Origin: a bacterium
GTDB taxonomy: Bacteria; Patescibacteriota; Minisyncoccia; UBA6257; UBA9933
Direction: 5' to 3'
NCBI GenBank assembly: GCA_030693235.1
Contig: JAUYBE010000006.1
Coordinates: forward strand, 71,189-135,188
Length of the DNA stretch: 64,000 nucleotides
This document shows, piece after piece, positions 579 through 34,613 of this stretch; positions within the stretch are counted from its first letter, which is position 1; each line of letters begins with the position of its first letter. Both the position numbers and the translations under genes were made by a program. Under the pieces are notes generated by a model that worked only from the letters and a program-made list of their open reading frames with translations, was not told where the DNA came from and did not search any database.

Positions 579-911
579 ATGAAAATCAACATTAAAGCCA
601 CTAATTTGGAATTGACGCCGCCGATTCGCGAATATATAGAAAATAAAATCGGTTCGCTTAACCGTTTTTTGAAAAGATTCGAAAATAAAAGCGAAGTTGA
701 AGTATTTGTTGAAATTGCCCGCACTACCAAACATCATCGTCACGGCAATGTTTTATACGCGGAAGCCACTGTTCCGATTGGTAAAAAAATTTTAAGAGCC
801 GAGCATTTTGATTGGGATATCAGAGTGGCGATTGATAAAGTAAAAGATAAATTACAGAAGGAGATTAAAAAATATAAAGAGAAAAAAATAGTGAAAAGAA
901 GGAATGTTTAA
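579..911 (+). CDS. hpf: Ribosome hibernation promoting factor / RaiA family
   Basis: The sequence MKINIKATNLELTPPIREYIENKIGSLNRF...EVEVFVEIA matches the HPF/YfiA fold pattern. An internal ATG at 579 was chosen over the upstream TTG at 543. Confidence 0.8.
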   Translation: MKINIKATNLELTPPIREYIENKIGSLNRFLKRFENKSEVEVFVEIARTTKHHRHGNVLYAEATVPIGKKILRAEHFDWDIRVAIDKVKDKLQKEIKKYKEKKIVKRRNV

Positions 912-3279
912 TTTTTTAAAACAATTTTTCGGCAAATATGATTTTGAACCGCTAATTAAAAAAATTAATTCTTTAGAACCGGAACTGGAAAAATTAACAG
1001 ACGAAGAATTAAAAAACAAGAGCCTTGATTTGAAAAAAGCGGTTCAATCAAAAAGCCTCGATGATATTTTGCCCGAGGCTTTTGCGTTGGTAAGGGAAGC
1101 CGCCAAAAGGACATTGGGCCAGCGGCCTTTTGATGTTCAATTAATGGGCGGCGTTGTTTTGCATCAAGGAAAAATCGCCGAGATGAAAACCGGTGAAGGA
1201 AAAACTCTGGCAGCTGTTATGCCGGCTTATCTTAACGCTTTAACCGGCAAAGGCGTTCATATTATTACGGTTAACGATTATTTGGCGCGAAGAGACGCGA
1301 TTTGGATGGGGCAAATTTATCACGCTTTGGGATTGTCAATTGGATGTTTGACGCATGAAGCGGCGCTTTTATACGACCCAATGTATACCGAAAAAGATAA
1401 AGAACGCGATATTTTGGGAGGTTTTAAAATAGTTCACGAATTTCTTCGGCCGGTTTCAAGAAAAGAAGCTTATTTAGCCGATATTACTTACGGCACCAAT
1501 CACGAATTCGGTTTTGATTATCTTCGCGATAATTTGGTTTATGATTTAGGACAACAAGCTCAAAGGGGCAATCATTTCGCCATTATTGACGAGGTTGACA
1601 GTATTTTAATCGATGAGGCGCGCACTCCTTTGATTATCGCGGCGCCGGATACCGAATCCAGCGAGTATTATAAAATTTTCGCTAAAATTGTTGACAGACT
1701 TCGCAAAGATGATGATTATTTGGTTGATGAAAAATTAAAAACCGTCAGCATTACCGATGAGGGAATTGATAAAATAGAGAAGACGCTGAACATTAAAAAT
1801 CTTTACGGGCCGGAAAATTTTCGGATGGTTCATTATTTGGAAGAATCGCTTAAAGCTAAAACTTTATTTCATCTGGATAAAAATTATGTAGTTAAAAACG
1901 GCGAGGTGATTATTGTGGATGAATTTACCGGCCGGATGATGTATGGCCGAAGATATAGCGCCGGACTCCATCAGGCGATTGAAGCCAAAGAAAACGTCGC
2001 AATTAATCAGGAATCAAAAACTTTTGCCCAGATTACCATTCAGAATTATTTTCGGTTGTATGAAAAAATCAGCGGTATGACCGGCACGGCTCAGACATCG
2101 GCCGAGGAGTTTCATAAAGTTTACAATTTGGAAGTGATTAGCGTGCCGTCCAATAAACCGACGGTTCGCAATGATCTGTCGGATCTTATTTATAAAAATA
2201 CGGAAGCGAAATATCAAGCCGTGATTGAGGAAGTAAGAAAACGCCATTTAAGCGGCCAGCCGGTTCTCATCGGCACCGCTTCCATTACTCATAACGAAAT
2301 TTTATCGGATTTATTGAATCGAGCCGGCGTTTCGCACGAAGTTTTGAACGCCAAGAATCATGAATGCGAAGGATTGATTATCGCTCAGGCCGGAAAATTA
2401 GGAGCGGTTACCGTGGCGACTAACATGGCTGGCAGGGGAGTCGATATTGTTTTCGGCGGCAATCCTCCCGAGCCGGCAGAAGCGCGAAAAATCAGAGAAT
2501 TGGGCGGGTTGCATATTATCGGCACTGAAAGGCATGAAGCCAGAAGAATTGATAATCAGTTGCGCGGCAGAGCGGGACGGCAAGGAGATCCCGGTTCTTC
2601 GCAATTTTTTCTGTCTTTGGAAGACGATTTATTGCGGATTTTCGGCGGCGAAAGAATAAAAAGTTTAATGGAAGCGTTTAATTTGCCAGAGGATCAGCCG
2701 ATTGAATCGCGATTAGTTTCCAAAGTCGTTAATGAGGCCCAGAAAAAAGTTGAGGGAATGAATTTTGACGGCAGAAAACATTTATTGGAATACGACGATG
2801 TTTTGAACAAGCAACGGACGGCTTTTTATAAAAAAAGGCGGGAATTTTTATCTCCCTACGAGAGATCCCCCGAAGGGGGAGAACAAAAATCAAATCCGCA
2901 GGTTTTGGCGATGTTGGATATTTTATGGATGAACCATTTGGAAAATTTGGAAGCTTTGAGAGAGTCGGTTGGGATGCGGGCTTACGGCCAGCACGACCCT
3001 TTGGTGGAATATCGGCGGGAAAGTTTTTCGATGTTTAGAGAAATGATGGCGAATTTTGACAAATGGCTAAGCGAAAACGCAGAGCGTTTATCGCAACCAA
3101 CAACCAACGACCAACAATCAGCAAAAGAAAATAATTTAGGAAATGTCGTGGGTCGTGGGTCGTTAGTCGTCGGTCAGACCAAAGTCGGTCGCAATGATCC
3201 CTGCCCGTGCGGCAAAAAAAATCCACTTGCCAATAAACCAATGAAATACAAAAAATGTTGTTATCCAAAATTTGAATAA
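904..3279 (+). CDS. secA: Preprotein translocase ATPase SecA. It ends in the C-terminal zinc-binding tail CPCGKKNPLANKPMKYKKCCY and contains in-frame repeat insertions
   Basis: 791 aa. SecA DEAD-motor motifs are present: MKTGEGKTL, DEVDSILIDEARTPLII, TGTA, NMAGRGVDI. The start overlaps the hpf stop. Confidence 0.95.
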   Translation: MFNFLKQFFGKYDFEPLIKKINSLEPELEKLTDEELKNKSLDLKKAVQSKSLDDILPEAFALVREAAKRTLGQRPFDVQLMGGVVLHQGKIAEMKTGEGKTLAAVMPAYLNALTGKGVHIITVNDYLARRDAIWMGQIYHALGLSIGCLTHEAALLYDPMYTEKDKERDILGGFKIVHEFLRPVSRKEAYLADITYGTNHEFGFDYLRDNLVYDLGQQAQRGNHFAIIDEVDSILIDEARTPLIIAAPDTESSEYYKIFAKIVDRLRKDDDYLVDEKLKTVSITDEGIDKIEKTLNIKNLYGPENFRMVHYLEESLKAKTLFHLDKNYVVKNGEVIIVDEFTGRMMYGRRYSAGLHQAIEAKENVAINQESKTFAQITIQNYFRLYEKISGMTGTAQTSAEEFHKVYNLEVISVPSNKPTVRNDLSDLIYKNTEAKYQAVIEEVRKRHLSGQPVLIGTASITHNEILSDLLNRAGVSHEVLNAKNHECEGLIIAQAGKLGAVTVATNMAGRGVDIVFGGNPPEPAEARKIRELGGLHIIGTERHEARRIDNQLRGRAGRQGDPGSSQFFLSLEDDLLRIFGGERIKSLMEAFNLPEDQPIESRLVSKVVNEAQKKVEGMNFDGRKHLLEYDDVLNKQRTAFYKKRREFLSPYERSPEGGEQKSNPQVLAMLDILWMNHLENLEALRESVGMRAYGQHDPLVEYRRESFSMFREMMANFDKWLSENAERLSQPTTNDQQSAKENNLGNVVGRGSLVVGQTKVGRNDPCPCGKKNPLANKPMKYKKCCYPKFE

Positions 3280-3845
3280 AAAGATTGTAACATTTTTAGA
3301 ATTTTTTTACGAATTTTGGAGATATCATTTCGACTATTTAAGGTGAATTTTTTTCTGGTAATAAGCGCATGACAGTTTGGACAGACTAACATTAAATTAT
3401 CTATCTCATGTAGCCCTCCTTTGTTTTTGGGTACGATATGATGAGTATCAAGAGACAGTTCATAGCCACAAAATTCACATTTATCCCCATATTTTTTAAT
3501 CGCTTGCGCGCGAATCCAGGCTTTATGCTTTTTGATTTCGCCATATAAATACTTCTTTATTCCTAGTTTTCTACGGCGATATCTAACCGTCCATTGATTA
3601 GCCCTTTTAAATCCCATTTTCCTTAATTCTTTTGCAATTTCTTTATCAATCATTTTATGGAAATTTTTATTAATGAAATCGTCAACAACGGCATGGGGTA
3701 ATTTTTCAAGTGATTGATAAGCATCTTTCTTTAATTCAGGATAACCATGACGTCTAATTCTAGCCAAATGCATTGGGCAATAAATTTGCTTAGTATTCTT
3801 ATATAATGTAAACTTATTACATCCTTTTATTTTACACTCTGGCAT
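3261..3845 (-). CDS. HNH endonuclease domain protein (stand-alone, Cys-rich N-terminus)
   Basis: The C-terminal CEFCGYELSLDTHHIVPKNKGGLHEIDNLMLVCPNCH is a canonical HNH motif. The N-terminus has CxxC...CPMH. Confidence 0.8.
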   Translation of the reverse strand: MPECKIKGCNKFTLYKNTKQIYCPMHLARIRRHGYPELKKDAYQSLEKLPHAVVDDFINKNFHKMIDKEIAKELRKMGFKRANQWTVRYRRRKLGIKKYLYGEIKKHKAWIRAQAIKKYGDKCEFCGYELSLDTHHIVPKNKGGLHEIDNLMLVCPNCHALITRKKFTLNSRNDISKIRKKILKMLQSFYSNFG

Positions 3846-5700: not shown

Positions 5701-5741
5701 TTTCTCCAATTTTTTCGCTTTCCCGAAATTGCCGGCGTATC

Positions 5742-5858
5742 ATACTTTCCCGTTCGCCGAAGCAAATAGTATCATCTGATTCAAGCGCTTTTACTTTTCT
5801 GTTCGGAATGGGAAGAAGTAGGGCACGCTTAAGTAAAACACCGGCAAATTCGGGGAAG
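5742..5858 (-). rRNA. rrf: 5S ribosomal RNA
   Basis: The reverse complement contains cccattccgaacagaaaagtaaaagcgc...gatgatactatttgc...gggaaagta, matching the conserved 5S loop B/C and helix IV patterns. It lies just downstream of the 23S 3' end. Ends are approximate. Confidence 0.75.
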
Positions 5859-6022
5859 CGAAATTCACAATTATTATCAGAATCTTCAAATCCCAAAAGG
5901 GGAATGAGATAAATTATTTATGACTTATTAGTACTTCTTGGCTTAATCCGTTGCCGGACTTACACCTAAAGCCTATCAACGTGGTAATCTTCCACGAGTC
6001 TAAGATGTCTAATCTTGGGAGG

Positions 6023-6055
<33 letters not shown>

Positions 6056-6196
6056 CTGCCGAACATAGCTACCCGGCGCTTCACCTGGTGGCAAAGCCGG
6101 TAGACCAGAGGTTCGTTCAGCCTGATCCTCTCGTACAAAGGCCAACTTCCCTCAAACATCAACGCCTCTAGCAGATAGAGACCAACCTGTCTCACG

Positions 6197-6894
6197 CATA
6201 ATTTCAACTATTACTAATTGATTGGACTATACCACCTTCTTTTTTTATTAAGAAGATCGACGTTTTATAAAATCTTTAAAGATTTTATCTCTCCGACATA
6301 AGTCGAAGAAGTCTCTACGGGGTTAATGTACGCTTTTTTCGTTTCTTAGAATAATTTAAATCCCGAAAACTATCTACTAATTTTGCGAGTTTAATAAAAT
6401 CATTCTTATTTTTTATATTTTCTTTCATATTTAGAATTTTTATCATCAGATTAACTTGTTCTTTTTTAAGAATTACAAATGGTTTTACCATTTTCAAAAA
6501 ATCGCGCAACGCGTCGGTTCTTCCAATTATATATTCAAGAATACCGTCTTTGCGTATTCTTAAATAACCTAAACCAATTAAATTACAAATCTTTTGAAAA
6601 TTAACCCGATCTTTCTGAGATTGAAATAAAACAATATATGGCGATACTTGAAAACCATACCGATAAGTTCGATTTGGTTTTAATCGCACATAAATACTTC
6701 CATCTCCGTCTAAAAATCCTGCGATATATGATTTTTGAATTTGATTAAGCATACACAACTTCCCTCGGTATTATCCTAACATTTGACAGGTTAAAAATCA
6801 ATATTAGGATTTCACCGATATGAGTCGATTTATGCATTTTGACATCACTGTCGAAAGCCGCCGTGTTCGATGGTCATAAAGGGTTCTTTCTTTG
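6197..6894 (-). mobile_element. Group I intron in 23S rRNA, inserted in the ...GGGTTyArAmCGU|CGUGAGACAG context (near E. coli position 2593, the I-CreI-type site). It carries a LAGLIDADG ORF
   Basis: Exon sequence gggttcaaaccgt is interrupted before cgtgagacag. The 5' exon ends in U and the intron ends in G (omega-G). The span is about 698 nt with the ORF inside. Confidence 0.75.
6315..6758 (-). CDS. LAGLIDADG homing endonuclease encoded in the 23S intron
   Basis: 147 aa with the N-terminal motif IAGFLDGDGSI (LAGLIDADG). It sits wholly inside rRNA sequence. Confidence 0.85.
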   Translation of the reverse strand: MCMLNQIQKSYIAGFLDGDGSIYVRLKPNRTYRYGFQVSPYIVLFQSQKDRVNFQKICNLIGLGYLRIRKDGILEYIIGRTDALRDFLKMVKPFVILKKEQVNLMIKILNMKENIKNKNDFIKLAKLVDSFRDLNYSKKRKKRTLTP

Positions 6895-7027
6895 ACGGTT
6901 TGAACCCAGCTCGCGTATCACTTTAATTGGCGAACAGCCAAACGCTTGGGACCTTCTTCAGCCCCGCGCTGTGATGAGCCGACATCGAGGTGCCGAGCGA
7001 GATCGTCGATAAGAACTCTCGGATCTC

Positions 7028-7063
<36 letters not shown>

Positions 7064-8860
7064 ATCTCCGGCCTTTCTATAAAGGACCGTCGGGTCACTA
7101 AGTTCTGCTTTCGCACCGGCGCGGCTTGTCAGCCTTGCCGTTAAGCCGGCTTTTGCCTTTACGCGTCCAGCTCGATTTCCATCCGAGCTAAGCCGACCTT
7201 AATAAACTCCTCCGTTACTCTTTAGGAGGATTCCGCCCCAGAAAAACTGCCCGCCAGACACTGTCCCCGAACGTTTTTGCCGTTCAGGTTAGTTTTTAAA
7301 ATTTAAAAGATGGGTGTTTCATTGTCGGCTCCATCCCGACCGAGATCGAAACTTCAAAGCCTCCCCACTACGCTACGCATTTAAATTCTAAAAACAATAT
7401 CAAGCTACAGTAAAGCTCCCGGGGTCTTTTCGTCCCGCTAGAGGTATCCCGCGTCTTCACGGGAATCGCATTTTCACCGAGCTCCTCGTTGAGACAGTTC
7501 CCCAGTCGTTACACCTTTCGTGCGCTTCGGAACTTACCCGAAAAGGAATTGCGCTACCTTAGAACGATTATAGTTATCGCTGACATTGACGAGGGCTTGA
7601 GTCACTCAGCTGCGCATATTGCTACACGCAACCGGCAACCTTGACCTTCTCGCATCGGTCAGGTGTCACCCCCTATACCTCCTCTTACGAGTTTGCAGGG
7701 AGCTGTGTTTTTGTTAAACAGTCGCTAGGGATACTTTCGCTGCGACCCGAAAAATGCCTTGCGGCATCTCGGGTAGGCCTTATTGCTAACTTACGGCCGC
7801 TTTTTTGCCGAGTTCCTTAACGAGGAATCACTCGTTTCCCTGAGGCTACTCGCCTCATCCACCTGTGTCGGTTTACGGTACGGACCCAACATTTCTAATC
7901 TTAGAGGTTTTTCTCGGAGATTTGCTCGACAAACTTTATCCGGTAAAACCAGACATCGCCTCTACTCTGGGATTTGCTATTAAAAGCATCCCGACAGATT
8001 TTCTAGTCGGGAATCCTCGATCAAGGACGTCAAACCATTAAGACGCTTTATCTACTAAACCTCGTCACCCCATCGAAAAATATTGAGGGACTGGAATATT
8101 AACCAGTTGTCCATTAACTCCGGCTTTCGCCATTGCCTTAGGACCGCCTAACCCTCCGTTGATTTACATTGCGGAGGAAACCTTGGATTTGCGGGAGTCC
8201 GAGTTCTCATCGGACTTGCGGTTACTCATGCCAACATTCTCTCTTCCGTACGCTCCAGTTGCCCTCGCGGGTCAACCTTCAGCGCGTACGAAATGCTCTC
8301 CTACCACCCCCGACGTGAAGTCGGGGATTCGTGTTTTCGGTAATTTGCTTAGCCCCGGTAAATTTTCGGCGCAACCCGCCGTCGAATAGTGAGCTGTTAC
8401 GCACTCTTTAAAGGATGGCTGCCTCTAAGCCAACCTCCTATCTGTTTATGGCGGATAACTGCCTTTAACACTTAGCAAATATTTAGGGACCTTAAACGAC
8501 GATCAAGGGCTGTTTCCCTTTCGAACATGGAGCTTAGCCCCCACGTTCTAACTGCCGAGCCGTGCTTTTCCGTATTCGGAGTTTGACTGAGAAGTCGAGA
8601 TTTCTCCCTTTACTTCTTAACCAGTAGCTCTACCCCAGAAAAGTTTTTACTCGACGCCAGTCCTAAAACTGTTTCGGAGAGAACCAGCTATTACCAGGCT
8701 CGATTAGCTTTTCACTTCTTACCTCAGCTCATCCGAAGATTTTGCACAATCAACCGGTTCGGACCTCCATCCCGCTTTCGCGGGACTTCATCCTGGCCAA
8801 GGCAAGCTCGCCTGGCTTCGGGTCTTACACAAACCGTTAACCTCGCGCTCCGCGCGAGAA

Positions 8861-8998
8861 ATTTCTAATTTCTAATTTCTAATTTCTAAATAAATCCCAA
8901 TTTCCCAAATCCCAATAACCAAATATAATTGTGGTCATTTAGTGCTTGGTCATTGGTCATTATTTAGGTCAATTAGAAATTAGGTCAATTAGGAATTC
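8861..8998 (-). repeat. Palindromic repeat-built expansion, possibly an intervening sequence, inside 23S domain I/II. It is made of tctaatt / aattaga and tggtcat / tgaccaa type repeats
   Basis: About 140 nt of tandem and inverted ctaatt, cccaat and ggtcatt repeats replace a short variable helix between the conserved gggaaaccgagt and gtgtaagacccgaa blocks. The same repeat family occurs at 18287-18398 and 52770-52795. Confidence 0.6.
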
Positions 8999-9186
8999 CT
9001 TGTGCGAAGCACAAGGTGGCGCGCTTTTAACACTCGGTTTCCCTTTGCCTCCGCCCCGTAGGACTTAGACAAACGATTTATATAAACTCGTTGGCTCATT
9101 CTTCAATAGGCACACGGTCGTCCTTGCGGACTTCCGTTCCTTGTAGACATATGGTTTCAGATTCTATTTCATCGGCCTTGCCGGCC

Positions 9187-9225
<39 letters not shown>

Positions 9226-9962
9226 ATCATCAGATGTATTTAGCCTTTCCGGATAGTGCCGGATGATTCCCTCGAAGCATTCTGTCCTCGAGGTACTCAA
9301 GATCAAAGAAAATTGGTTAACTTATTTTCGCCTACGGGATTATCACCCTCTTTGATCAGTCTTTCCAGACTGTTTGGCTAACAAGTTAATTTGTAACCAA
9401 TCTTACTATAAATAGTAAATTTCTCTGTCTTACAACCCCCATCAAAATTTTCTTGCGAAAATTTTGACAGGTTTGGGCTTTTCCCTTTTCGCTCGCCGCT
9501 ACTTGGGGAATAAAATTTTTCTCTTTTCCTCCGCTTACTGAGATGTTTCACTTCAGCGGGTTAGCATCATACTACTTATAAGCATGATAGCGCGGGTTTA
9601 CCGCGCTGGGTTTTCCCATTCGGAAATCTCCGGATCATAGGTTGCTAAGCACCTCCCCGAAGCTTATCGCAGCTACGCCACGTCCTTCATCGCCATCTGA
9701 TGTCAAGGCATCCACCATACGCCCTTATTTTAAACTGTCTCAATCCCTTTCGGGATTTGAGGATTCGAATAATTGTTTTTATTATTTAATTTTCAAGGAA
9801 CTATCAAATCAACCGTTTCAGAAAAATCAAAAACCGCGTTTCGCGCGGCTTTTAAATCAACAAAAATTTTGCTGATTTTTCAGCCACTTTTTGTATTCAT
9901 TAATTTCATCATTTTCATTATTAAGTATAGATGGTGGGAAAAGTATGTCAAGAGCCAAATTT

Positions 9963-10036
9963 TGGGTGGCCAACGGGATTCGAACCCGCGATGAGAGTTC
10001 CACAAACTCTAGTGTTGCCGCTACACTATGGCCACC
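9963..10036 (-). tRNA. tRNA-His (GTG), with G-1 and encoded CCA
   Basis: Manual fold: anticodon loop ttGTGga. An extra 5' G pairs with C73. The acceptor pairing is perfect. Confidence 0.8.
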
Positions 10037-10057
10037 ATAAATAGCGAAAATTTTATG

Positions 10058-10129
10058 TGCCGCGGGGGTGAATCGAACACCCGACGCCTACTTCTTCAGA
10101 GTAGCGCTCCACCACTGAGCTACCGCGGC
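10058..10129 (-). tRNA. tRNA-Phe (GAA)
   Basis: Manual fold with perfect 7-bp acceptor gccgcgg/ccgcggc. Anticodon loop ctGAAga; T-loop ttcgatt. Confidence 0.8.
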
Positions 10130-10184
10130 ATTATTTATTTTTGATAAAATTCTATCAAAAATAAATAAAATTGCAACAATTTTG

Positions 10185-10256
10185 TGCCCCCGCGAGGAAT
10201 CGAACCTCGATCTACTCCTTAGAAGGGAGTCGTTTTATCCATTAAACTATGGGGAC
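10185..10256 (-). tRNA. tRNA-Arg (TCT)
   Basis: Manual fold: anticodon stem actcc/ggagt with loop ctTCTaa. T-arm cgagg-ttcgatt-cctcg. One A-C mismatch in the acceptor. Confidence 0.65.
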
Positions 10257-11376: not shown

Positions 11377-13626
11377 ATGCCGAGAGTTATAAATTTAAAC
11401 GACTCGTTGGAAAACCTTTACGGCGTAGGTCCGAAATTCGCCGAACGCCTTGGAAAATTCAGCATCAAAACCGTAATGGATTTACTTTGGCATTTTCCTT
11501 TTCGCTACGAGGATTTTTCCAATATCTCCAAAATCGGCGATTTGAAAATCGGACAGCACGCCGTGATTCGCGGCGAAATCGTTTCGGTGAAGATGTGGAA
11601 AAGTTGGAAAAAGAGAATGTTTGTCATTGAGGCCTTGGTGAGCGACGGCAGCGGTTCAATTCGGGCGGTTTGGTTTAACCAGAGATTTTTAATAACAGTC
11701 ATTAAAAAAGGAATAACGGTTAATTTGGCCGGAAAAATAATTGAGACGAAAGGAGGATTAACAATTTCGCATCCGATTCATGAAATAATTACGTCTTTGA
11801 AAAAAGACGCCGGCGATTTAAGGCATACCGGCAGAATTGTGCCGGTGTATCCGGAAACAAGAGGTCTGACTTCAAAAATGCTTCGGTTTCTGATTCAGCC
11901 GCTCTTGAAAAATATCGGTTCTTTGGAAGACCCTTTGCCCGAAGAAATTTTAAAATCATCAAATTTGCCCGATTTAGAAACCAGCCTTCAGGCGATTCAT
12001 TTTCCCGAAACCCTTCGGCAAGCTCAGGCTGCCCAAAAGCGTTTCGCTTTTGAGGATTTATTTTTCTTGCAACTTGTCAATTTTCGCCAGCGTTTGCGTT
12101 TGGCGCGGGAAAAAGCGTATTCCGCGGAAATTGATTTGGAAGAAATAAAAGAAATGCTTAAAAAACTCCCGTTTGAATTGACGCGTTCCCAGAAAAAATC
12201 ATTATGGGAAATTTTACGGGATTTGAAAAAGTCCCATCCGATGAACAGGTTGTTGCAGGGCGATGTCGGTTCCGGAAAAACAATCGTGGCGATTTTAGCC
12301 GCTTTATCGATAATTAAAGACAACAAACAAGTCGCTTTTATGGTTCCGACCGAAGTATTGGCTCAACAGCATTACAACACTTTCAAAAAAATCTTTTCCG
12401 GTTTTAATAAAGGCGCCGGCATTATTACTTCTTCAATCGCGAAAGTTTTTTACGGCGACGGTTTGGAAAGCGACATTAAAAAAAGCGAAATTATCAAAAA
12501 AATAAAGAACGGAGAGATAAAAATCGTATTCGGCACCCATTCGCTTATTCAGAAATACATAAAATTCAGCAGTTTGGCTTTTGCGGTTATTGACGAACAG
12601 CATAGATTTGGCGTTCGCCAACGAGCAGACCTTTTAAAAAATAATAAATCCGGGATTGAGATTCCTCATTTATTATCAATGTCGGCGACGCCGATTCCGC
12701 GCACTTTAACTTTGACGGTTTTCGGCGACTTGGATTTGTCCATTATTGATGAATTGCCCAAAGGCAGAAAAGAGATAATTACTAAAATCGTTAGCCCGTT
12801 AAATCGAGATAAAGCTTACGCGTTTATTCGGGATCAGGTTAAAAAAGGACGGCAGATTTTTGTGATTTGTCCAAGAATAGATGCCGATAGCTCCGCCAAC
12901 CTGCCTGACGGAACCGGTCGTTCGTCCGCTCCAGCGGCGGACGACGACCTTGACTCTCGCGCCACCGACTTCTCGCTATCGCTCGGAGACCAAGCTCGGT
13001 GGCGCTCCGAGACATTCCGCGCGGCAGATTGGCGGAGCGAAATAAAAGCAGTCAAAGAAGAATACGAAAAACTATCGCAAAAAATCTTTCCGGATTTAAA
13101 AGTAGCGATGCTGCATGGTAAAATGAAAGCTAAAGAAAAAACTGAAATAATGAAAAAGTTCAAAGACGGCGAAATTGATATTTTGGTTTCAACCTCGGTG
13201 GTGGAAGTCGGCGTTGACGTGCCGAACGCCACCATTATGATGATTGAAGGTTCTGACAAATTCGGTTTGGCCCAGCTTTATCAGTTTCGGGGCCGGGTGG
13301 GCAGGGGAGAGCATCAATCCTTTTGTTTTCTTTTTACGGATTCTTCTTCGCAAACAACTCGTAAGAGACTTCATTCTTTAATAGAAGCCAAAAACGGTTT
13401 CGAGCTTGCCGAGAAAGATTTGGCTATTCGCGGGCCCGGAGAATTCTTGGGAGAATCGCAAACCGGCATACCCGATTTGGCAATGAAGGCGGTTCAAAAT
13501 CCGGAATTGGTTAAATCTGGTCGCGAAGCCGCGGAAATGATTTTAAAAAAAGACCCTGAACTGAAAAATTATCCCTTGCTCAAAAAACGGTTGGATAGTT
13601 TTGAAAAAAAAGTGCATTTGGAGTAG
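11377..13626 (+). CDS. recG: ATP-dependent DNA helicase RecG, with a GC-rich in-frame insertion of about 150 nt (about 12886-13040)
   Basis: Helicase motifs LLQGDVGSGKT, DEQHRFGV, SATPIPRTL and QFRGRVGRG. The N-terminal wedge domain is present. Confidence 0.9.
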   Translation: MPRVINLNDSLENLYGVGPKFAERLGKFSIKTVMDLLWHFPFRYEDFSNISKIGDLKIGQHAVIRGEIVSVKMWKSWKKRMFVIEALVSDGSGSIRAVWFNQRFLITVIKKGITVNLAGKIIETKGGLTISHPIHEIITSLKKDAGDLRHTGRIVPVYPETRGLTSKMLRFLIQPLLKNIGSLEDPLPEEILKSSNLPDLETSLQAIHFPETLRQAQAAQKRFAFEDLFFLQLVNFRQRLRLAREKAYSAEIDLEEIKEMLKKLPFELTRSQKKSLWEILRDLKKSHPMNRLLQGDVGSGKTIVAILAALSIIKDNKQVAFMVPTEVLAQQHYNTFKKIFSGFNKGAGIITSSIAKVFYGDGLESDIKKSEIIKKIKNGEIKIVFGTHSLIQKYIKFSSLAFAVIDEQHRFGVRQRADLLKNNKSGIEIPHLLSMSATPIPRTLTLTVFGDLDLSIIDELPKGRKEIITKIVSPLNRDKAYAFIRDQVKKGRQIFVICPRIDADSSANLPDGTGRSSAPAADDDLDSRATDFSLSLGDQARWRSETFRAADWRSEIKAVKEEYEKLSQKIFPDLKVAMLHGKMKAKEKTEIMKKFKDGEIDILVSTSVVEVGVDVPNATIMMIEGSDKFGLAQLYQFRGRVGRGEHQSFCFLFTDSSSQTTRKRLHSLIEAKNGFELAEKDLAIRGPGEFLGESQTGIPDLAMKAVQNPELVKSGREAAEMILKKDPELKNYPLLKKRLDSFEKKVHLE

Positions 13627-17272: not shown

Positions 17273-17355
17273 TAATCAGGTTTTAGTTTTTAGTTTTTAG
17301 GTTTTAGATAATTTTTTTCTAACACCTAACACCTAACACCTAACACCTAAAAACT

Positions 17356-17739
17356 TTGAGACTAATAGGCATCAACATTCCAGATAATAAAAGAATAGAA
17401 ATCGCTTTAACCTATGTGTACGGCATCGGCCGTTCTTTGGCGAATGACATTTTAAAAACGACAAAAATCGATTTCAACAAGCGGGCGAAAGATTTAAGTC
17501 CCGAAGAAATCAGCCGCCTTAAGCAGGAAATTGAAAAAAGTTATAAAATTGAAGGAGAATTGCGCCAGTCAATAAAACAAAACATCGTTCGTCTTAAAGA
17601 AATTCAATGCTATCGAGGAAGCAGGCATTTAAAAAAATTACCGATAAGAGGTCAGCGGACCAAAACCAATTCCCGGACCGTCAGAGGCAATGTCAGAAAA
17701 ACGGTCGGCAGCGGAAAGAGAAAAGCGGACTTGAAGTAA
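17356..17739 (+). CDS. rpsM: Ribosomal protein uS13 (TTG start)
   Basis: Sequence RLIGINIPDNKRIEIALTYVYGIGRSLANDIL... matches S13. Confidence 0.9.
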   Translation: MRLIGINIPDNKRIEIALTYVYGIGRSLANDILKTTKIDFNKRAKDLSPEEISRLKQEIEKSYKIEGELRQSIKQNIVRLKEIQCYRGSRHLKKLPIRGQRTKTNSRTVRGNVRKTVGSGKRKADLK

Positions 17740-17826: not shown

Positions 17827-18282
17827 ATGGGTAAGAAAAAAGTTATTAAAAAAACAGAAGAAGAGGTTTTAAAAGAGAAAGATAAATTGGAAACGGCGAT
17901 GACAAAAGCCGCCGGGAAAGGCACGGTCATAAAAAAAATAGACAGCGGTCGGATTTATATTAACGCCAGTTATAATAATACCGTTTTAACCGTCGCCGAC
18001 AGAAAAGGCGATGTTATTGCCTGGGCATCGGCCGGTTCGTTGGGTTTTTCCGGACCCAAAAAATCAACCCCTTTCGCGGCTTCAAAAGTTGTTGCCGCTG
18101 TCGCCGAGAAATTAAAAAAAATCGGAATTGTTAATTTTGAAGTTATCGTTAAGGGCGTCGGCTCGGGAAGAGATTCGTCTATCAGATCTTTGGCTAATCA
18201 AGGATTTAATATTTTATCAATTAAAGATGTTACCCCTATTCCTCATAACGGTCCGCGGCCGCCGAAAGTGAGAAGAGTGTAA
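17827..18282 (+). CDS. rpsK: Ribosomal protein uS11
   Basis: Sequence GRIYINASYNNTVLTVADRKGDVIAWASAGSLGFSGPKKSTPFAA matches S11. Confidence 0.9.
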   Translation: MGKKKVIKKTEEEVLKEKDKLETAMTKAAGKGTVIKKIDSGRIYINASYNNTVLTVADRKGDVIAWASAGSLGFSGPKKSTPFAASKVVAAVAEKLKKIGIVNFEVIVKGVGSGRDSSIRSLANQGFNILSIKDVTPIPHNGPRPPKVRRV

Positions 18283-18399
18283 ATATAAAAATTATTCTAA
18301 TTAGTCTAATTTCTAATTATTCTAAAACCTGGGCATTAGGGTTTAGGGTTTATTTAGGTAAATTAGAATAATTAGGTTAATTAGAGTAATTTATAAAGC

Positions 18400-19089
18400 G
18401 TGATTCAAGATCTAAATAAATTAGAGCAGAAACTCGGAACACAATTTAAAAATAAGGATTTTCTCAAGGAGGCCATTACTCATCGTTCTTATCTTAACGA
18501 AAATCCTTCTTGGGGCGTGCCCCATAATGAGCGCTTAGAATTTTTAGGAGACGCGGTTTTGGAATTGGCGGTAACGGAAAATCTTTTTAACCAGTTTCCG
18601 GATTTTTCCGAAGGACAATTGACGAGTTTGCGGGCGGCTTTGGTGAATTATCAAACAATGGCTAATGCGGCTCGCAATATAGATCTAGGAAATTTTATTT
18701 TATTGTCGCGAGGCGAAGCCAAGGATATCGGCCGGGCCCGGGAAGTGATTTTGGCCAACGCGATGGAGGCGTTAATTGGCGCGGTTTATTTGGACGCCGG
18801 ATACGCAAAGACAAAAGAATTAGTGGAAAAATTCGTTATTAATCTTTATTTGGAGCAGATTATCAAGAACAATCTTTATAAAGATCCAAAAAGTCATCTT
18901 CAGGAAATTGCTCAGGAAAAATTGAAACTGACTCCGACTTATCAATTGCTTGAAGAATGGGGTCCGGATCATAAGAAAATATTTAAGATGGGAGTTTTTT
19001 TTGGAGATAAATTAATTGCCCAAGGCGAGGGCTATTCCAAACAAGAGGCGGAAATCGAAGCGGCGAGGAACGCTCTGAAGAGTTTTTAG
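18400..19089 (+). CDS. rnc: Ribonuclease III (GTG start)
   Basis: RNase III signature ERLEFLGDAVLEL and a C-terminal dsRBD (QE...P.Y......GP.H...F). Confidence 0.9.
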   Translation: MIQDLNKLEQKLGTQFKNKDFLKEAITHRSYLNENPSWGVPHNERLEFLGDAVLELAVTENLFNQFPDFSEGQLTSLRAALVNYQTMANAARNIDLGNFILLSRGEAKDIGRAREVILANAMEALIGAVYLDAGYAKTKELVEKFVINLYLEQIIKNNLYKDPKSHLQEIAQEKLKLTPTYQLLEEWGPDHKKIFKMGVFFGDKLIAQGEGYSKQEAEIEAARNALKSF

Positions 19090-19159
19090 GTTTTAGTTTT
19101 TAGGTTTTAGATGAATTTTTTTCTAACACCCAACACCCAACACCTGACACCTAAATATT

Positions 19160-24378: not shown

Positions 24379-24928
24379 AAAACCCCAAACCCTAAACTCT
24401 TACGACTATTGTCGGTGTTAAAGCGCTCTAACCGATTAGAGCGGTCGAGCTAACTCGACCGCTCTCCGCTATTGCGCTTAATACATCTATAATGCGCCTA
24501 AAAAGTTTAGTTGATTAATTGTAAATCAGCGGATTTTAACAGCTCGCCTGTTTTTATGAGCTGAGCCGTTAAAAAACCAATTTGAGATTGCTTCGCTTCG
24601 TTCGCAATGACAAAACGACAGTCGTCATTGTGAACCCCGCTAAGCGGGGCGCGGCAATCTTTATAGATTGCTTCGCCTTCGGCTCGCAATGACAGAATTG
24701 GATTGCCGCCATCTATAACGCGACAAAGTAGTAAAGCAAATAAAATAGTAAAGCGAATAGTAAATGAAAATCATTACAACATAGCGGTAGAGATTGCCGC
24801 GCTCCCTTCGGTCGCTCGCAATGACATCTCGGCTCGCAATGACAAAAGCATCAATCAGTATATGCGATAAGATTGCTTGGCATTAAGCTATTGACGATGG
24901 CAATAAAATTTGATATTTTTATTAAATT

Positions 24929-31626: not shown

Positions 31627-31770
31627 CAAGAAAAATACATAGATTATTATAAATAATAATCCGCGGACAACAGGCATTTAAGACCTGTCGAGGATGGCGA
31701 TTTTTGTCTGCGGCATTCTGCCGTATTTTTGTTACTAAAACCTAACACCTAAAACCTATAACCTAACTTT

Positions 31771-32268
31771 ATGTTAACCAAACAGCAAAAAATTGAATCA
31801 GTTGGAGAAGCGGAGAAAATTCTTGACCAAAATAAGACTTTGGTTTTTGTCGATTTCAGCGGGACCAAGGTTGAGGATTTAAGAAAATTAAAACGGACAT
31901 TAAAGGAATTCGGCAGCCAGCTTAAAATAATAAAGAAGAAATTGCTTAGGATCGCTTTTCAGAACAAAAAAATTGATTTTAATCCGGAACAGTTTGATTT
32001 TCAGCTTGGCGCGGTTTTTAGCGATAGGGACATTTCGGAAGTCAGCGGGCCCGTTTATAAATTTTTCAAGGAGGTGGAGAAAAAAGGTTTTAAAATTTTA
32101 GGCGCTTATGATTTGTCGGAAAAAAATTTTTTGGATGCCGAGACGGTGAAAAAAATCGGTCAATTGCCGTCAAGAGAAATTTTATTGGCTCAGTTGATTG
32201 GTGCAATCGCGTCACCAATCAGGATGTTGATGTATATGTTGCAAGAACGGGGTAAAAAGGTCGGGTAA
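31771..32268 (+). CDS. rplJ: Ribosomal protein uL10
   Basis: Position directly upstream of rplL. L10-like N-terminal domain (K..V..V...L....T.....G.....LR...R). Confidence 0.8.
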   Translation: MLTKQQKIESVGEAEKILDQNKTLVFVDFSGTKVEDLRKLKRTLKEFGSQLKIIKKKLLRIAFQNKKIDFNPEQFDFQLGAVFSDRDISEVSGPVYKFFKEVEKKGFKILGAYDLSEKNFLDAETVKKIGQLPSREILLAQLIGAIASPIRMLMYMLQERGKKVG

Positions 32269-32269
32269 T

Positions 32270-32388
32270 AAAAATGTAAAATTTAAAAATCAAAAATCAA
32301 AATGACAGTGTAAAATGTAAAAATGAATTAAAAACAATTTTAACATTTTGATTTGTCATTTTACATTTTGATATTTACACTTTAAATT
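32270..32388. repeat. Long AT-rich imperfect palindrome (about 120 nt) in the rplJ-rplL intergenic region
   Basis: aaaatgtaaaat...gacagtgtaaaatgtaaaa is mirrored by ttttacattttga...tgtcattttacatttt. Confidence 0.6.
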
Positions 32389-32751
32389 ATGAATAAGTTT
32401 GATGATATTATTCAAAAAATTGAATCTTTAACCGTTGTTGAGATTGCCGAATTGGTTAAGGTGCTGGAAGAAAAATTCGGTATTTCAGCGGCGATGCCGA
32501 TGGCAACTGGCGCTGTTGCAGGAGCTGTGGCTGAAGAAAAAACTTCATTTGATGTTATTCTTAAAGCCGTTGGCGACCAAAAAATCAATGTGATTAAAGC
32601 GGTTAAAGAAGCGACCGGTTTGGGTTTGAAAGAATCCAAGGATTTGGTTGATGCCGCGCCAAAACAGATAAAACAGGGGCTTAAAAAAGAAGAAGCCGAT
32701 GAATTAAAAGCAAAATTGGAAGCAGTCGGAGCGGTGGTGGAGATACAATAA
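32389..32751 (+). CDS. rplL: Ribosomal protein bL12 (L7/L12)
   Basis: Sequence ...[18 protein letters not shown]...AA plus the C-terminal domain [24 protein letters not shown] matches L7/L12. Confidence 0.9.
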
Positions 32752-33128: not shown

Positions 33129-33560
33129 ATGTTCATCGGAGAATTTCAACACAATTTAGACAACAAAGGAAGAATTGCCATACCGGCAAAATTTAGAAAT
33201 AAATTAACCGGCGGCGCGATTGTTACGCGCGGACTGGATCATTGTCTTTTTGTTTTCAGCAATAAAGACTGGGAAGTTTTGGCGCAGAAATTAATCGCTT
33301 TGCCGTTGGCTCAGGCTAATTCCCGGGCTTTTGCTAGATTGATGTTGGCGGGCGCCGTTGACGCGGAATTAGATAAACAGGGAAGAATTTTAATTCCCGA
33401 TTATCTGAGAGAATATGCCGGGTTAAAAAAACAGACGACGGTTACCGGACTTTATAATCGGATTGAAATTTGGGACAGCGAAAATTGGAAGCAATACAAG
33501 AGCAAGACAGAAGCGTCATCTGATGAGATTGCGGAGAAACTGGGAGAGTTAGGGATTTAA
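33129..33560 (+). CDS. mraZ: Transcriptional regulator MraZ
   Basis: Duplicated SpoVT/AbrB-like halves with DxxGR motifs (LDNKGRIAIP and LDKQGRILIP). Confidence 0.9.
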   Translation: MFIGEFQHNLDNKGRIAIPAKFRNKLTGGAIVTRGLDHCLFVFSNKDWEVLAQKLIALPLAQANSRAFARLMLAGAVDAELDKQGRILIPDYLREYAGLKKQTTVTGLYNRIEIWDSENWKQYKSKTEASSDEIAEKLGELGI

Positions 33561-33653
33561 GTTAAAAGTTCGTAAAGTTCGTAAAGTTTATAAAGTCCGT
33601 AAAATTTAAAAAATTCAACTTTATAACTTTCAACTTTATAACTTTACAAACTG

Positions 33654-34613
33654 ATGCATAAGCCTGTTCTTTTAAAAGAAGTTATTGAAATTTTAAATCC
33701 ACAGTCCGGAGAATTTTTTATTGATGGAACATTGGGCAGTGGCGGGCACGCGGTTGAAATTATTAAAAAAATTTCGCCGAACGGAATATTTTTGGGAGTT
33801 GATTGGGATAAGGATGTAATAGAGAATTTCAAATCAAACCTAAAACCTAAAAGCTATAACCTAAAAGCTATTAGGTTGGTTCACGGCAATTACGCGGATT
33901 TGCCGGAAATTTTGTCTGCCTACGGCAGATCTCCCGAAGGGAGAAAAAAATACAAATTGCCGAAAGCCGACGGATTGCTCATTGATTTGGGATTTTCTTC
34001 CGAGCAGTTGGAGAAATCGGGCAGGGGATTCAGTTTTTTAAGAGATGAACCGCTGGATATGAGATATGACACGAAAGTTGAAAGTTTAACCGCGGCGGAA
34101 GCGGTAAACAGTTTCAACGAAAAAGATTTGGCGGATATTTTTTGGAAATACGGCGAAGAAAGATTTTCCCGAAGAATCGCCAAAAAGATTGTTGAAGAAA
34201 GGAAGAAAAAAAGAATTTTAATAACATTTGATTTAGTGGAAGTAATCAAAAGAGCTGTACCGAAAAGTTATGAAAAAGGCAGAATTCACCCCGCCACTCG
34301 CGTTTTTCAAGCCCTGCGGATTTATGTCAATGACGAATTGGGCAATTTGGAAAAATTATTAAAAAATCTGGAGAAAATTATAAAACCTAAAGGTCGAGTC
34401 GCTATAATTTCATTTCATTCATTGGAAGATCGCTTGGTTAAAAACTATTTTCGGGAGATGGCGAAACCTGCCCGCATTGCTACGCAAAGCGTTGCAGGCG
34501 GGAAAGGAATGGCGGAAATTTTAACCAAGAAACCGATAACGGCGACGCTGGAGGAAATTAGAAGCAATCCAAGGTCGCGATCGGCGAAAATGAGAGCAAT
34601 AAAACTTCTATGA
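33654..34613 (+). CDS. rsmH: 16S rRNA (cytosine1402-N4)-methyltransferase RsmH (MraW), with three in-frame repeat insertions
   Basis: Sequence HKPVLLKEVIE...FIDGTLGSGGHA...DLGFSSEQL...ISFHSLEDRLVK matches RsmH. Confidence 0.9.
   Translation: MHKPVLLKEVIEILNPQSGEFFIDGTLGSGGHAVEIIKKISPNGIFLGVDWDKDVIENFKSNLKPKSYNLKAIRLVHGNYADLPEILSAYGRSPEGRKKYKLPKADGLLIDLGFSSEQLEKSGRGFSFLRDEPLDMRYDTKVESLTAAEAVNSFNEKDLADIFWKYGEERFSRRIAKKIVEERKKKRILITFDLVEVIKRAVPKSYEKGRIHPATRVFQALRIYVNDELGNLEKLLKNLEKIIKPKGRVAIISFHSLEDRLVKNYFREMAKPARIATQSVAGGKGMAEILTKKPITATLEEIRSNPRSRSAKMRAIKLL

Follow-up and report, generated by a model that had tools for sequence, protein, structure and literature searches.

Intervening sequences (IVSs) that interrupt 23S rRNA genes have been described in Salmonella, Campylobacter, Leptospira, Coxiella, and the Alphaproteobacteria, where they occupy the tip of helix 25 (H25) or helix 45 (H45) (PMC4990558, PMC2801512). 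The borders of these classical IVSs are complementary and form a long stem, their G+C content is low, their occurrence is patchy among close relatives, and horizontal transfer has been suspected (PMC4990558, PMC2801512). In Salmonella, Leptospira, Coxiella, and the Alphaproteobacteria, RNase III excises the IVS without rejoining the flanking rRNA (PMC4990558). Here we describe an insertion in H25 of the 23S rRNA gene found on a 64,000-nucleotide stretch of contig JAUYBE010000006.1 (referred to below as the window; coordinates are window positions). The insertion resembles the classical IVSs in its location at the H25 tip, its long stem-loop, its low G+C content, its patchy occurrence, and the presence of an RNase III gene in its host, but it differs from them in that its arms consist of tandem heptamers, that two GC-rich mini-hairpins bound it, and that its family also occurs at sites beyond H25 and H45. 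Our results suggest that it is probably an IVS of the classical type, built from a dispersed and probably mobile hairpin cassette.

The host is a Parcubacteria/Wolfebacteria-like member of the candidate phyla radiation (CPR); the phosphoglycerate kinase (PGK) and RecG encoded in the window have their best named matches in Patescibacteria, "Candidatus Wolfebacteria," and Paceibacterota. Insertions of at least 100 bp are present in 82% of CPR 23S rRNA genes (Tsurumaki et al. 2024, PMC11270868), and the original prediction, which was made from the letters of the window and regarded such an insert as unusual for a stable rRNA, does not hold on this point. CPR 23S rRNA genes are rich in group I introns and also harbor short non-intron insertions at the known sites of RNase III-processed IVSs (PMC11270868). 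A passage of the same paper, citing Brown et al. 2015, reports that CPR rRNA insertions are removed from transcripts. The insertions described at the sites 23IS2 and 23IS4 (PMC11270868) come from the same phylum-level group and the same sites as ours and, like ours, are shorter than 200 bp, contain no open reading frame (ORF), and match no intron model. The H25 insert is therefore an already known kind of element in CPR 23S rRNA. The main text of that study does not use the words hairpin, repeat, or palindrome, and it describes no three-hairpin cassette, no heptamer arms, and no non-orthologous copies (PMC11270868).

The 23S rRNA gene lies on the minus strand at 5921 to 9735. A global match to the Rfam model RF02541 spans 6788 to 9735 (2118.8 bits), and a local search placed model positions 2413 to 2912 at 7100 to 5921, which sets the true 3' limit at ~5921; in addition to the H25 insertion, the gene contains an insertion of ~680 nt near its 3' end. 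On the RNA strand, the H25 insertion is flanked by the conserved blocks GGGAAACCGAGU (9043 to 9032) and GUGUAAGACCCGAA (8830 to 8817). Local alignment with Infernal located 178 inserted nt in the H25 loop (two bases in the consensus) at model positions 688/689. Around the insert, the H25 stem (GUUAA/UUAAC) is intact and the conserved loop sequence AAGCGCG is still present, indicating that the insert is an addition to the loop and that the helix has not been replaced. The native 5' strand of H25 with its conserved loop, GUGUUAAAAGCGCG (9020 to 9033, minus strand), was assigned with Infernal and is found as the same string in insert-free relatives, such as locus L014, and the native 3' strand, UUAAC (8836 to 8840, minus strand), was assigned with Infernal and by comparison with relatives. 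The sequence enclosed by these strands, ~179 nt at 8841 to 9019 (minus strand), is missing from relatives with a plain H25, and we refer to it as the IVS. The original prediction had pointed to an unusual insert between conserved 23S blocks, and all of the strings that it quoted are present, with the helix mapping placing the insertion in H25. Its estimate of about 140 nt has to be revised, as 8860 to 8997 corresponds to the long hairpin alone, and so does its view that a variable helix had been replaced, given that the insert sits inside the loop of an H25 whose stem is kept. H45, the other classical site, is normal in this 23S rRNA and has no insertion. The G+C content is 36% in the insert and 27% in its long hairpin, compared with 48% in the rest of the 23S rRNA gene.

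The insert consists of three hairpins, all on the minus strand. At the 5' end of the cassette is mini-hairpin 1, a perfect palindrome of 8 bp, CCUUGUGC-UUC-GCACAAGG (8998 to 9016), and at the 3' end is mini-hairpin 2, with 7 bp, CUCGCGC-GGA-GCGCGAG (8842 to 8858); the GC-rich strings cgcgcggagcgcgag and ccttgtgcttcgcacaagg correspond to these two flanking mini-hairpins and are part of the element. Between them lies a long AT-rich hairpin (8860 to 8997) whose arms are tandem-heptamer arrays, with the 5' arm at 8997 to 8933, the apical loop at 8932 to 8921, and the 3' arm at 8920 to 8860. Its 51 bp are arranged in segments of 4, 6, 13, 8, 5, 5, 4, and 6 bp separated by small internal loops. Tandem Repeats Finder detected AATTTCT in 4.3 copies at 8860 to 8889 (100% matches), TTGGTCA in 2.3 copies at 8946 to 8961, an array of the 8-nt unit ATCCCAAT at 8894 to 8926, and a 16-nt unit in 2.1 copies at 8964 to 8997. 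The predicted folding energy of the insert region is -84.2 kcal/mol, compared with a mean of -44.5 kcal/mol for shuffled sequences (z = -8.8; 0 of 200 shuffles folded as well). The antisense strand reaches only -65.4 kcal/mol, so that the rRNA strand is more stable by 19 kcal/mol, which indicates that wobble pairs favor the rRNA sense. No ORF is present in the insert, and the 2 promoter-like sites detected within it, against 0.7 +/- 0.8 expected, are not meaningful as an internal promoter.

Comparison with related loci indicates that the insert is one copy of a modular cassette composed of a GC-rich mini-hairpin with a UUC loop, an AT-rich heptamer hairpin, and a GC-rich mini-hairpin with a GGA loop. 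The closest match to the window core together with both mini-hairpins is found in locus L088, at positions 415 to 589, which precede the 23S rRNA gene of L088 (641 to 5436) by ~50 nt and are 83.7% identical to the window cassette over 178 nt. The match includes both mini-hairpins and non-repetitive stretches, with 36 nt at 100% and 49 nt at 94% identity. The 23S rRNA genes of the window and L088 are themselves only 67 to 77% identical in most of their matches, apart from a short 3'-proximal stretch that reaches 92%. Two further cassettes are present at other positions of the L088 23S rRNA gene, one of them with the same mini-hairpins. Cassettes are found in H45 of L013, L033, and L047, in the 23S-5S spacer of L089, and, in the numbering of the window 23S rRNA, at ~222, 266 to 368, 603 to 617, 1350, 1599 to 1809, 1955 to 1988, and 2095 to 2138. 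The family thereby occupies some ten to twelve rRNA locations in relatives, among them the tips of many 23S rRNA helices, including both classical sites. Since an rRNA pattern was used to collect the contigs, the extent to which cassettes seem to be concentrated in rRNA genes is subject to sampling bias. The ends of the cassette coincide with the two mini-hairpins. In the alignment, mini-hairpin 1 is invariant among copies at three different rRNA locations, and mini-hairpin 2 is kept in L103 and differs by one or two compensating base changes in two L088 copies. Both mini-hairpins are perfectly self-paired in 13 of 13 distinct cassettes, with 6 to 8 bp and a 3-nt loop, although the stem sequences vary between copies (for example, AGU/ACU, GAU/AUC, GUU/AAC, and UUGUG/CACAA); pairing between the arms of the two mini-hairpins always leaves two mismatches in most of the 13. 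These compensatory changes support both small hairpins as real structures. The hairpin with the UUC loop is the 5' one in all 13 cassettes, and this consistent orientation suggests that either the RNA is under selection or insertion is strand specific. The main argument that the cassette moves or is exchanged is that copies at non-orthologous sites resemble one another more closely than do the rRNAs of their hosts, and it is on this resemblance, at the level of sequence, that we consider the cassette to be probably mobile. A viral carrier was considered and rejected: a 27-mer from the 3' arm matched nothing but a one-armed (AGAAATT)n array in a single virus, represented by three contigs, there was no viral match to the mini-hairpin pattern, and no Rfam family matched the virus contigs that carry the array.

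Small dispersed repeats with some of these features are known from other bacteria. The Rickettsia palindromic elements (RPEs) are short and dispersed in a reduced genome, occur in intergenic regions and RNA genes and translated in frame within coding genes, and form families with a fixed consensus of ~100 to 150 bp. Unlike RPEs, each hairpin described here has its own repeat unit, some of the coding cases are not insertions (as in leucyl-tRNA synthetase [LeuRS], described below), and no sequence relationship is apparent. Doublets of repetitive extragenic palindromic elements (REP/REPIN) and palindrome-associated elements derived from IS200/IS605 are non-coding, are bounded by two similar hairpins, and lack the usual terminal inverted repeats and evident target duplications. 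In contrast to these, the interior of the cassette is a long hairpin, and its copies are mostly in rRNA genes, in a sampling of rRNA-bearing contigs alone. The short tandemly repeated repetitive sequences (STRRs) of cyanobacteria and the small dispersed repeats of Nostoc consist of tandem 7-nt units distributed genome-wide, often as intergenic hairpins. The TTGGTCA unit of the window is presumably identical to an STRR unit; our host, however, belongs to a different phylum, and we know of no link between STRRs and rRNA helix tips. Our search of the literature found nothing linking Rickettsia-type palindromic elements or heptamer hairpins to the CPR, and no description of the three-hairpin architecture, of its recurrence at a dozen rRNA locations that include both classical sites, or of a tie to a clade-wide excess of heptamer repeats.

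The original prediction had proposed a comparison with 23S rRNAs of related organisms, and this comparison bears out the H25 site as one of patchy insertion. Species genomes were scanned with the 5' flank, and metagenome contigs were collected with one exact 24-nt flank (at least 120 loci); the comparison set was composed of 95 distinct H25 regions among the matches listed, all sharing the 5' flank. Additional length at H25 was absent in 29 regions and amounted to 6 to 25 nt in 18, 26 to 60 nt in 20, 61 to 120 nt in 12, 121 to 200 nt in 8, and more than 200 nt in 8, the longest reaching ~1400 nt; inserts of 277 to 1429 nt were thus found at this site. Among 42 distinct inserts of 40 to 260 nt, 40 fold with z < -3, and the sense strand is the more stable in 34 (binomial P = 7e-5, a rough value, since the sequences are not independent). 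In many of these relatives the arms are built of tandem 7- to 10-nt units that differ by lineage, and the longer inserts contain short ORFs at most. Relatives with 84 to 91% 23S identity to the window illustrate how quickly the site changes. Of two Wolfebacteria-like loci, L014 has a plain H25 with 0 extra nt and L013 has 13 extra nt; both L013 and L029 have just an 18-nt tip hairpin with a UUCG loop. The nearest 23S rRNA among the matches listed is that of L103 (90.7% identity over 2026 nt). Both mini-hairpins of the window recur in its H25, but its core is unrelated and is built of CCUACGA/GUCGUUA heptamer units. In separate observations, L030, L065, and L120 share a cassette with L138 but have an additional GC-rich hairpin (~45 nt) within the apical loop, and inserts of 277 to 574 nt have the same stem as inserts of 61 to 66 nt, from which they differ by added loop sequence; this suggests that inserts grow by insertion at the apex. 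Taken together, the H25 site accommodates any sequence able to form a fold-back structure in the RNA, and its content turns over fast, as expected for IVSs.

Our results make it very likely that the insert is an H25 IVS that belongs to a dispersed cassette family. Excision by RNase III, which we propose by analogy with the classical systems, is more probable than not, and the reading as a whole, in which one copy of the cassette folds, is cut by RNase III, and has been spread at the level of DNA, appears likely to us. The original prediction had offered a mobile palindromic element and an RNase III-processed IVS as alternatives; both descriptions find support, the former in the dispersed family and the latter in the IVS-like position, hairpin, low G+C content, and patchiness, and we favor the two together over a choice between them. 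In the mechanism that we propose, the cassette would be transcribed within pre-23S rRNA and is predicted to fold by itself into a long, nearly continuous duplex, which would probably be directed away from the core of the ribosome. By analogy, RNase III, expected to be the enzyme encoded by rnc in the window, would cut this duplex, the IVS would be lost, and the 23S rRNA would be left in two pieces, a 5' one of ~0.7 kb and a 3' one, that stay associated via other contacts in the ribosome. We speculate that the GC-rich mini-hairpins may remain on the new ends as caps. The cassette would be spread or exchanged between sites and genomes as DNA, as the non-orthologous copies suggest, and its AT-rich core would turn over fast through slippage of heptamer units, a bias seen throughout the clade. 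The cassettes that precede a 23S rRNA gene (L088) or separate 23S from 5S (L089) lie in regions that are normally removed as rRNA matures, and this provides indirect support for the removal of internal copies.

Several observations weigh against this reading, and they are best considered together with the explanations that they would favor. With regard to the fold, an extended single helix in which the two GC-rich segments pair with one another is predicted at -84.2 kcal/mol, better by 6.4 kcal/mol than the three-way junction with two self-paired mini-hairpins (-77.8 kcal/mol). The energy model and the comparative data thus disagree, and we tentatively prefer the two self-paired mini-hairpins, following the compensatory changes over the thermodynamics. 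In addition, small internal loops interrupt the long stem every 4 to 13 bp, and cleavage by RNase III could be weakened or redirected by them. In a rival reading, the insert stays in the mature 23S rRNA as a solvent-exposed extension of H25 and the rRNA is not fragmented; the periodic internal loops, which make the insert a less than ideal substrate for RNase III, would agree with this. In eukaryotes, H25 bears the expansion segment ES7L, which comprises very large additions on the solvent side that are retained in the mature rRNA and conserved within lineages. A retained helix would agree with the independent folding of the insert on an intact H25 stem, and the sense-strand bias, which shows selection on RNA pairing, would be needed by such a helix as well. 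The conservation within a lineage that marks ES7L fails here, however, as H25 is hypervariable and, in the nearest relatives, is plain, extended by 13 nt, or filled with an unrelated core; inserts of 277 to 1429 nt occupy the same site in relatives, the same cassette also lies shortly before a 23S rRNA gene and between 23S and 5S rRNA genes, where it is expected to be lost in maturation, and the literature reports that CPR rRNA insertions are removed from transcripts (PMC11270868). Unlike ES7L, the window insert is thus hypervariable and probably removed. We consider retention to be the main rival of the IVS reading and, on balance, unlikely.

Other observations bear on the origin of the insert. 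Neither a target-site duplication nor a common target motif is visible in the 13 copies, and a tblastn search of low sensitivity, with TnpA of IS608 and the RAYT of Escherichia coli as queries, detected no Y1 transposase or RAYT in the window (64 kb of a contig of at least 228 kb) or in 877 kb of related loci. Low-complexity repeats could also inflate apparent homology. These points would be accommodated if heptamer slippage and hairpin-templated repair had lengthened a small tip hairpin of H25 in place, the likeness to other copies being convergence of low-complexity sequence. Heptamer arrays are the predominant tandem repeats in this clade and occur even in coding sequence without a change in protein length (in LeuRS and pgk), the window and L103 have wholly different cores on a conserved base, and the small UUCG hairpin of L013 and L029 would be a suitable starting point. 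Convergence fails to explain, however, why one pair of mini-hairpins is found at three distinct locations, and the similarity of the whole cassette to the L088 copy elsewhere exceeds that of most of the host 23S rRNA; the shared mini-hairpins and non-repetitive stretches argue that the homology is real despite the low complexity. An origin in place is accordingly a quite unlikely alternative to spread of a cassette. An intron of group I, group II, or the bulge-helix-bulge type, removed with rejoining of the exons, would be in keeping with the abundance of group I introns in CPR 23S rRNA genes (PMC11270868) and with the LAGLIDADG-bearing insertion near the 3' end of the same gene. But group I and II introns and all other Rfam families besides the large-subunit rRNA fall below the gathering threshold in the insert, although the same search does detect group I introns in related loci, and a simple hairpin of 179 nt without a catalytic core, located at a classical non-intron IVS site, makes this explanation very improbable. 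The window derives from a metagenome-assembled genome, and hairpins and repeats break assemblies, with several related contigs terminating inside their H25 inserts. Nevertheless, independent assemblies from many samples have the same architecture at the same site, the exact basal hairpins recur in L103, and the flanks join the conserved H25 strands perfectly, so that an assembly artifact or chimera hardly deserves credence.

The IVS is also linked to two other places in the window by matches better than expected by chance. IVS positions 8860 to 8890 are 90% identical to 52760 to 52790 in pgk over 31 nt (E = 3e-5), with an exact 16-mer in common, and IVS positions 8960 to 8992 are 89% identical to 18350 to 18384 in the rpsK-rnc spacer over 35 nt (E = 0.002); a 14-nt exact match connects the IVS to 18305 to 18318. 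The spacer between rpsK (17827 to 18282) and rnc is wholly filled by a heptamer hairpin of 104 nt (18289 to 18392, plus strand), which runs up to the rnc start codon, lacks the GC-rich mini-hairpins, and aligns with both arms of the IVS. It folds with -33.4 kcal/mol on the plus (mRNA) strand and -21.5 kcal/mol on the other strand. The rnc gene (18400 to 19089, plus strand) encodes RNase III, with full-length matches to the Pfam domains Ribonucleas_3_3 (5e-39) and dsrm (1e-17). In E. coli, the rnc leader contains a self-regulating RNase III cleavage site, and by analogy the rpsK-rnc hairpin could be a predicted site of this kind. In pgk, the match is a one-armed AATTTCT array (52760 to 52790, plus strand) that is translated in frame as GISKSEFLISK and lengthens the protein by only ~2 residues relative to its orthologues. 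The sole unit that would place TAA in frame is altered, which suggests that the array is translated. Of the repeats that the original prediction had regarded as shared with the rpsK-rnc spacer and pgk, both matches stand; the pgk array, however, is one-armed and part of a normal coding sequence, and it is not a palindrome.

Heptamer repeats are abundant beyond these sites. Of the 85 tandem-repeat arrays in the window, 23 have a period of 7, far more than any other period. The related loci (877 kb) contain 263 period-7 arrays compared with 99 for period 9, the next most frequent. Such a preponderance would not be expected where most of the DNA is coding. A sliding-window energy scan of the window was too noisy for a census of hairpins, and a finder of inverted repeats limited to Watson-Crick pairs misses hairpins with G-U pairs; the following are individual observations. 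Hairpins exactly fill the operon spacers at 32260 to 32395 and 33560 to 33655. The PGK encoded by pgk (52548 to 53927) has 459 aa, compared with ~380 aa in many relatives, and contains five in-frame insertions at variable loops (52855 to 52975, 53055 to 53175, 53348 to 53377, 53455 to 53497, and 53750 to 53845). Each coincides with a hairpin or tandem-repeat element, one hairpin reaching -52 kcal/mol and one element being exactly 3 x 7 nt, or 7 aa; one of the insertions is missing from a 75%-identical orthologue and is therefore recent. In recG (11377 to 13626), GC-rich nested hairpins at 12905 to 13030 (-57 kcal/mol for one strand and -63 kcal/mol for the other) lie where RecG has a loop insertion of ~35 aa. 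No two relatives share the length and sequence of this insertion, and in some relatives the loop consists of repeat-derived peptides, such as TNTD repeats. In leuS (58253 to 60715), complementary arrays of GAATTAA-type and AATTTAG-type heptamers at 58940 to 59078 form an mRNA hairpin of -34.6 kcal/mol. Their residues align almost without gaps to the LeuRS of Thermus thermophilus, indicating that the array is not an insertion, and the stop triplets of its units all lie outside the reading frame. The sequence encoding the C-terminal tail of SecA (secA, 904 to 3279) contains a heptamer hairpin at 3085 to 3180 with CAACCAA/GTCGTGG units (-32 kcal/mol on the minus strand), and an ORF for an HNH endonuclease (3261 to 3845, minus strand) overlaps the end of secA on the opposite strand.

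Other hairpin families are also dispersed in the window. Intergenic hairpins at 17275 to 17358 and 19078 to 19150 (plus strand), with (TTTTAGG)n and (CTAACAC)n arms and 88% mutual identity, represent a second family that folds better on the strand opposite the genes, and one-armed arrays of similar units are present at 31735, 33836, and 39719. A family of GC-rich nested hairpins at 24595 to 24715, 52855 to 52975, and 54885 to 55000 has the common core GAGATTGC...CTCGCAATGACA, with TTCGCCTTCGG between the two in two copies; one copy is translated in frame within PGK. Within the 23S rRNA gene itself, the local match of model positions 2413 to 2912 to 7100 to 5921 implies that the ~680-nt insertion, located near model position 2600 and containing an ORF of 147 aa with a LAGLIDADG_1 domain (6315 to 6758), lies inside the gene. 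The insertion had no match to the group I intron model, and it is probably an intron with a homing endonuclease, of the kind common in the CPR. A 5S rRNA gene (5730 to 5845) and three tRNA genes directly upstream of the 23S rRNA gene (9965 to 10256) were identified with Rfam; the Rfam scan found no 16S rRNA gene in the 64-kb window, and the 23S rRNA gene is thus unlinked to 16S. Among recG homologues of relatives, examined with 10-kb flanks, rRNA genes are not adjacent to recG. The RNase P RNA (55392 to 55695) is short, with 304 nt aligned to a model of 367 positions (141 bits).

Excision of the cassette, if it occurs, would mean that the organism makes its 23S rRNA in pieces, as in Salmonella or Coxiella, with consequences for models of the CPR ribosome, for the recovery and quantification of CPR rRNA from RNA data, and for primers or probes that span H25. 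The cassette family provides a concrete identity for the uncharacterized short insertions, which represent a large fraction of all insertions in CPR rRNA. It also offers a tractable test of how IVSs spread, in that one bounded element can be compared at a dozen sites in many genomes. Our results further indicate that the reduced genomes of the CPR tolerate, and perhaps exploit, much hairpin-forming repeat DNA, in operon spacers and in frame in PGK and RecG. A more far-reaching idea, possible but doubtful at present, is that the cassette is a portable processing module, mobile and bounded by hairpins, that lands in rRNA helix tips, rRNA flanks, and mRNA spacers across the Parcubacteria; the copy directly before the RNase III gene fits this idea. 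Its setting would be genomes in which heptamer slippage writes hairpin repeats into coding sequence while the frame is kept open. Such a module, if it exists, would bring its own RNase III site and capping hairpins, and it would set the number of rRNA pieces and perhaps the cuts in operon transcripts.

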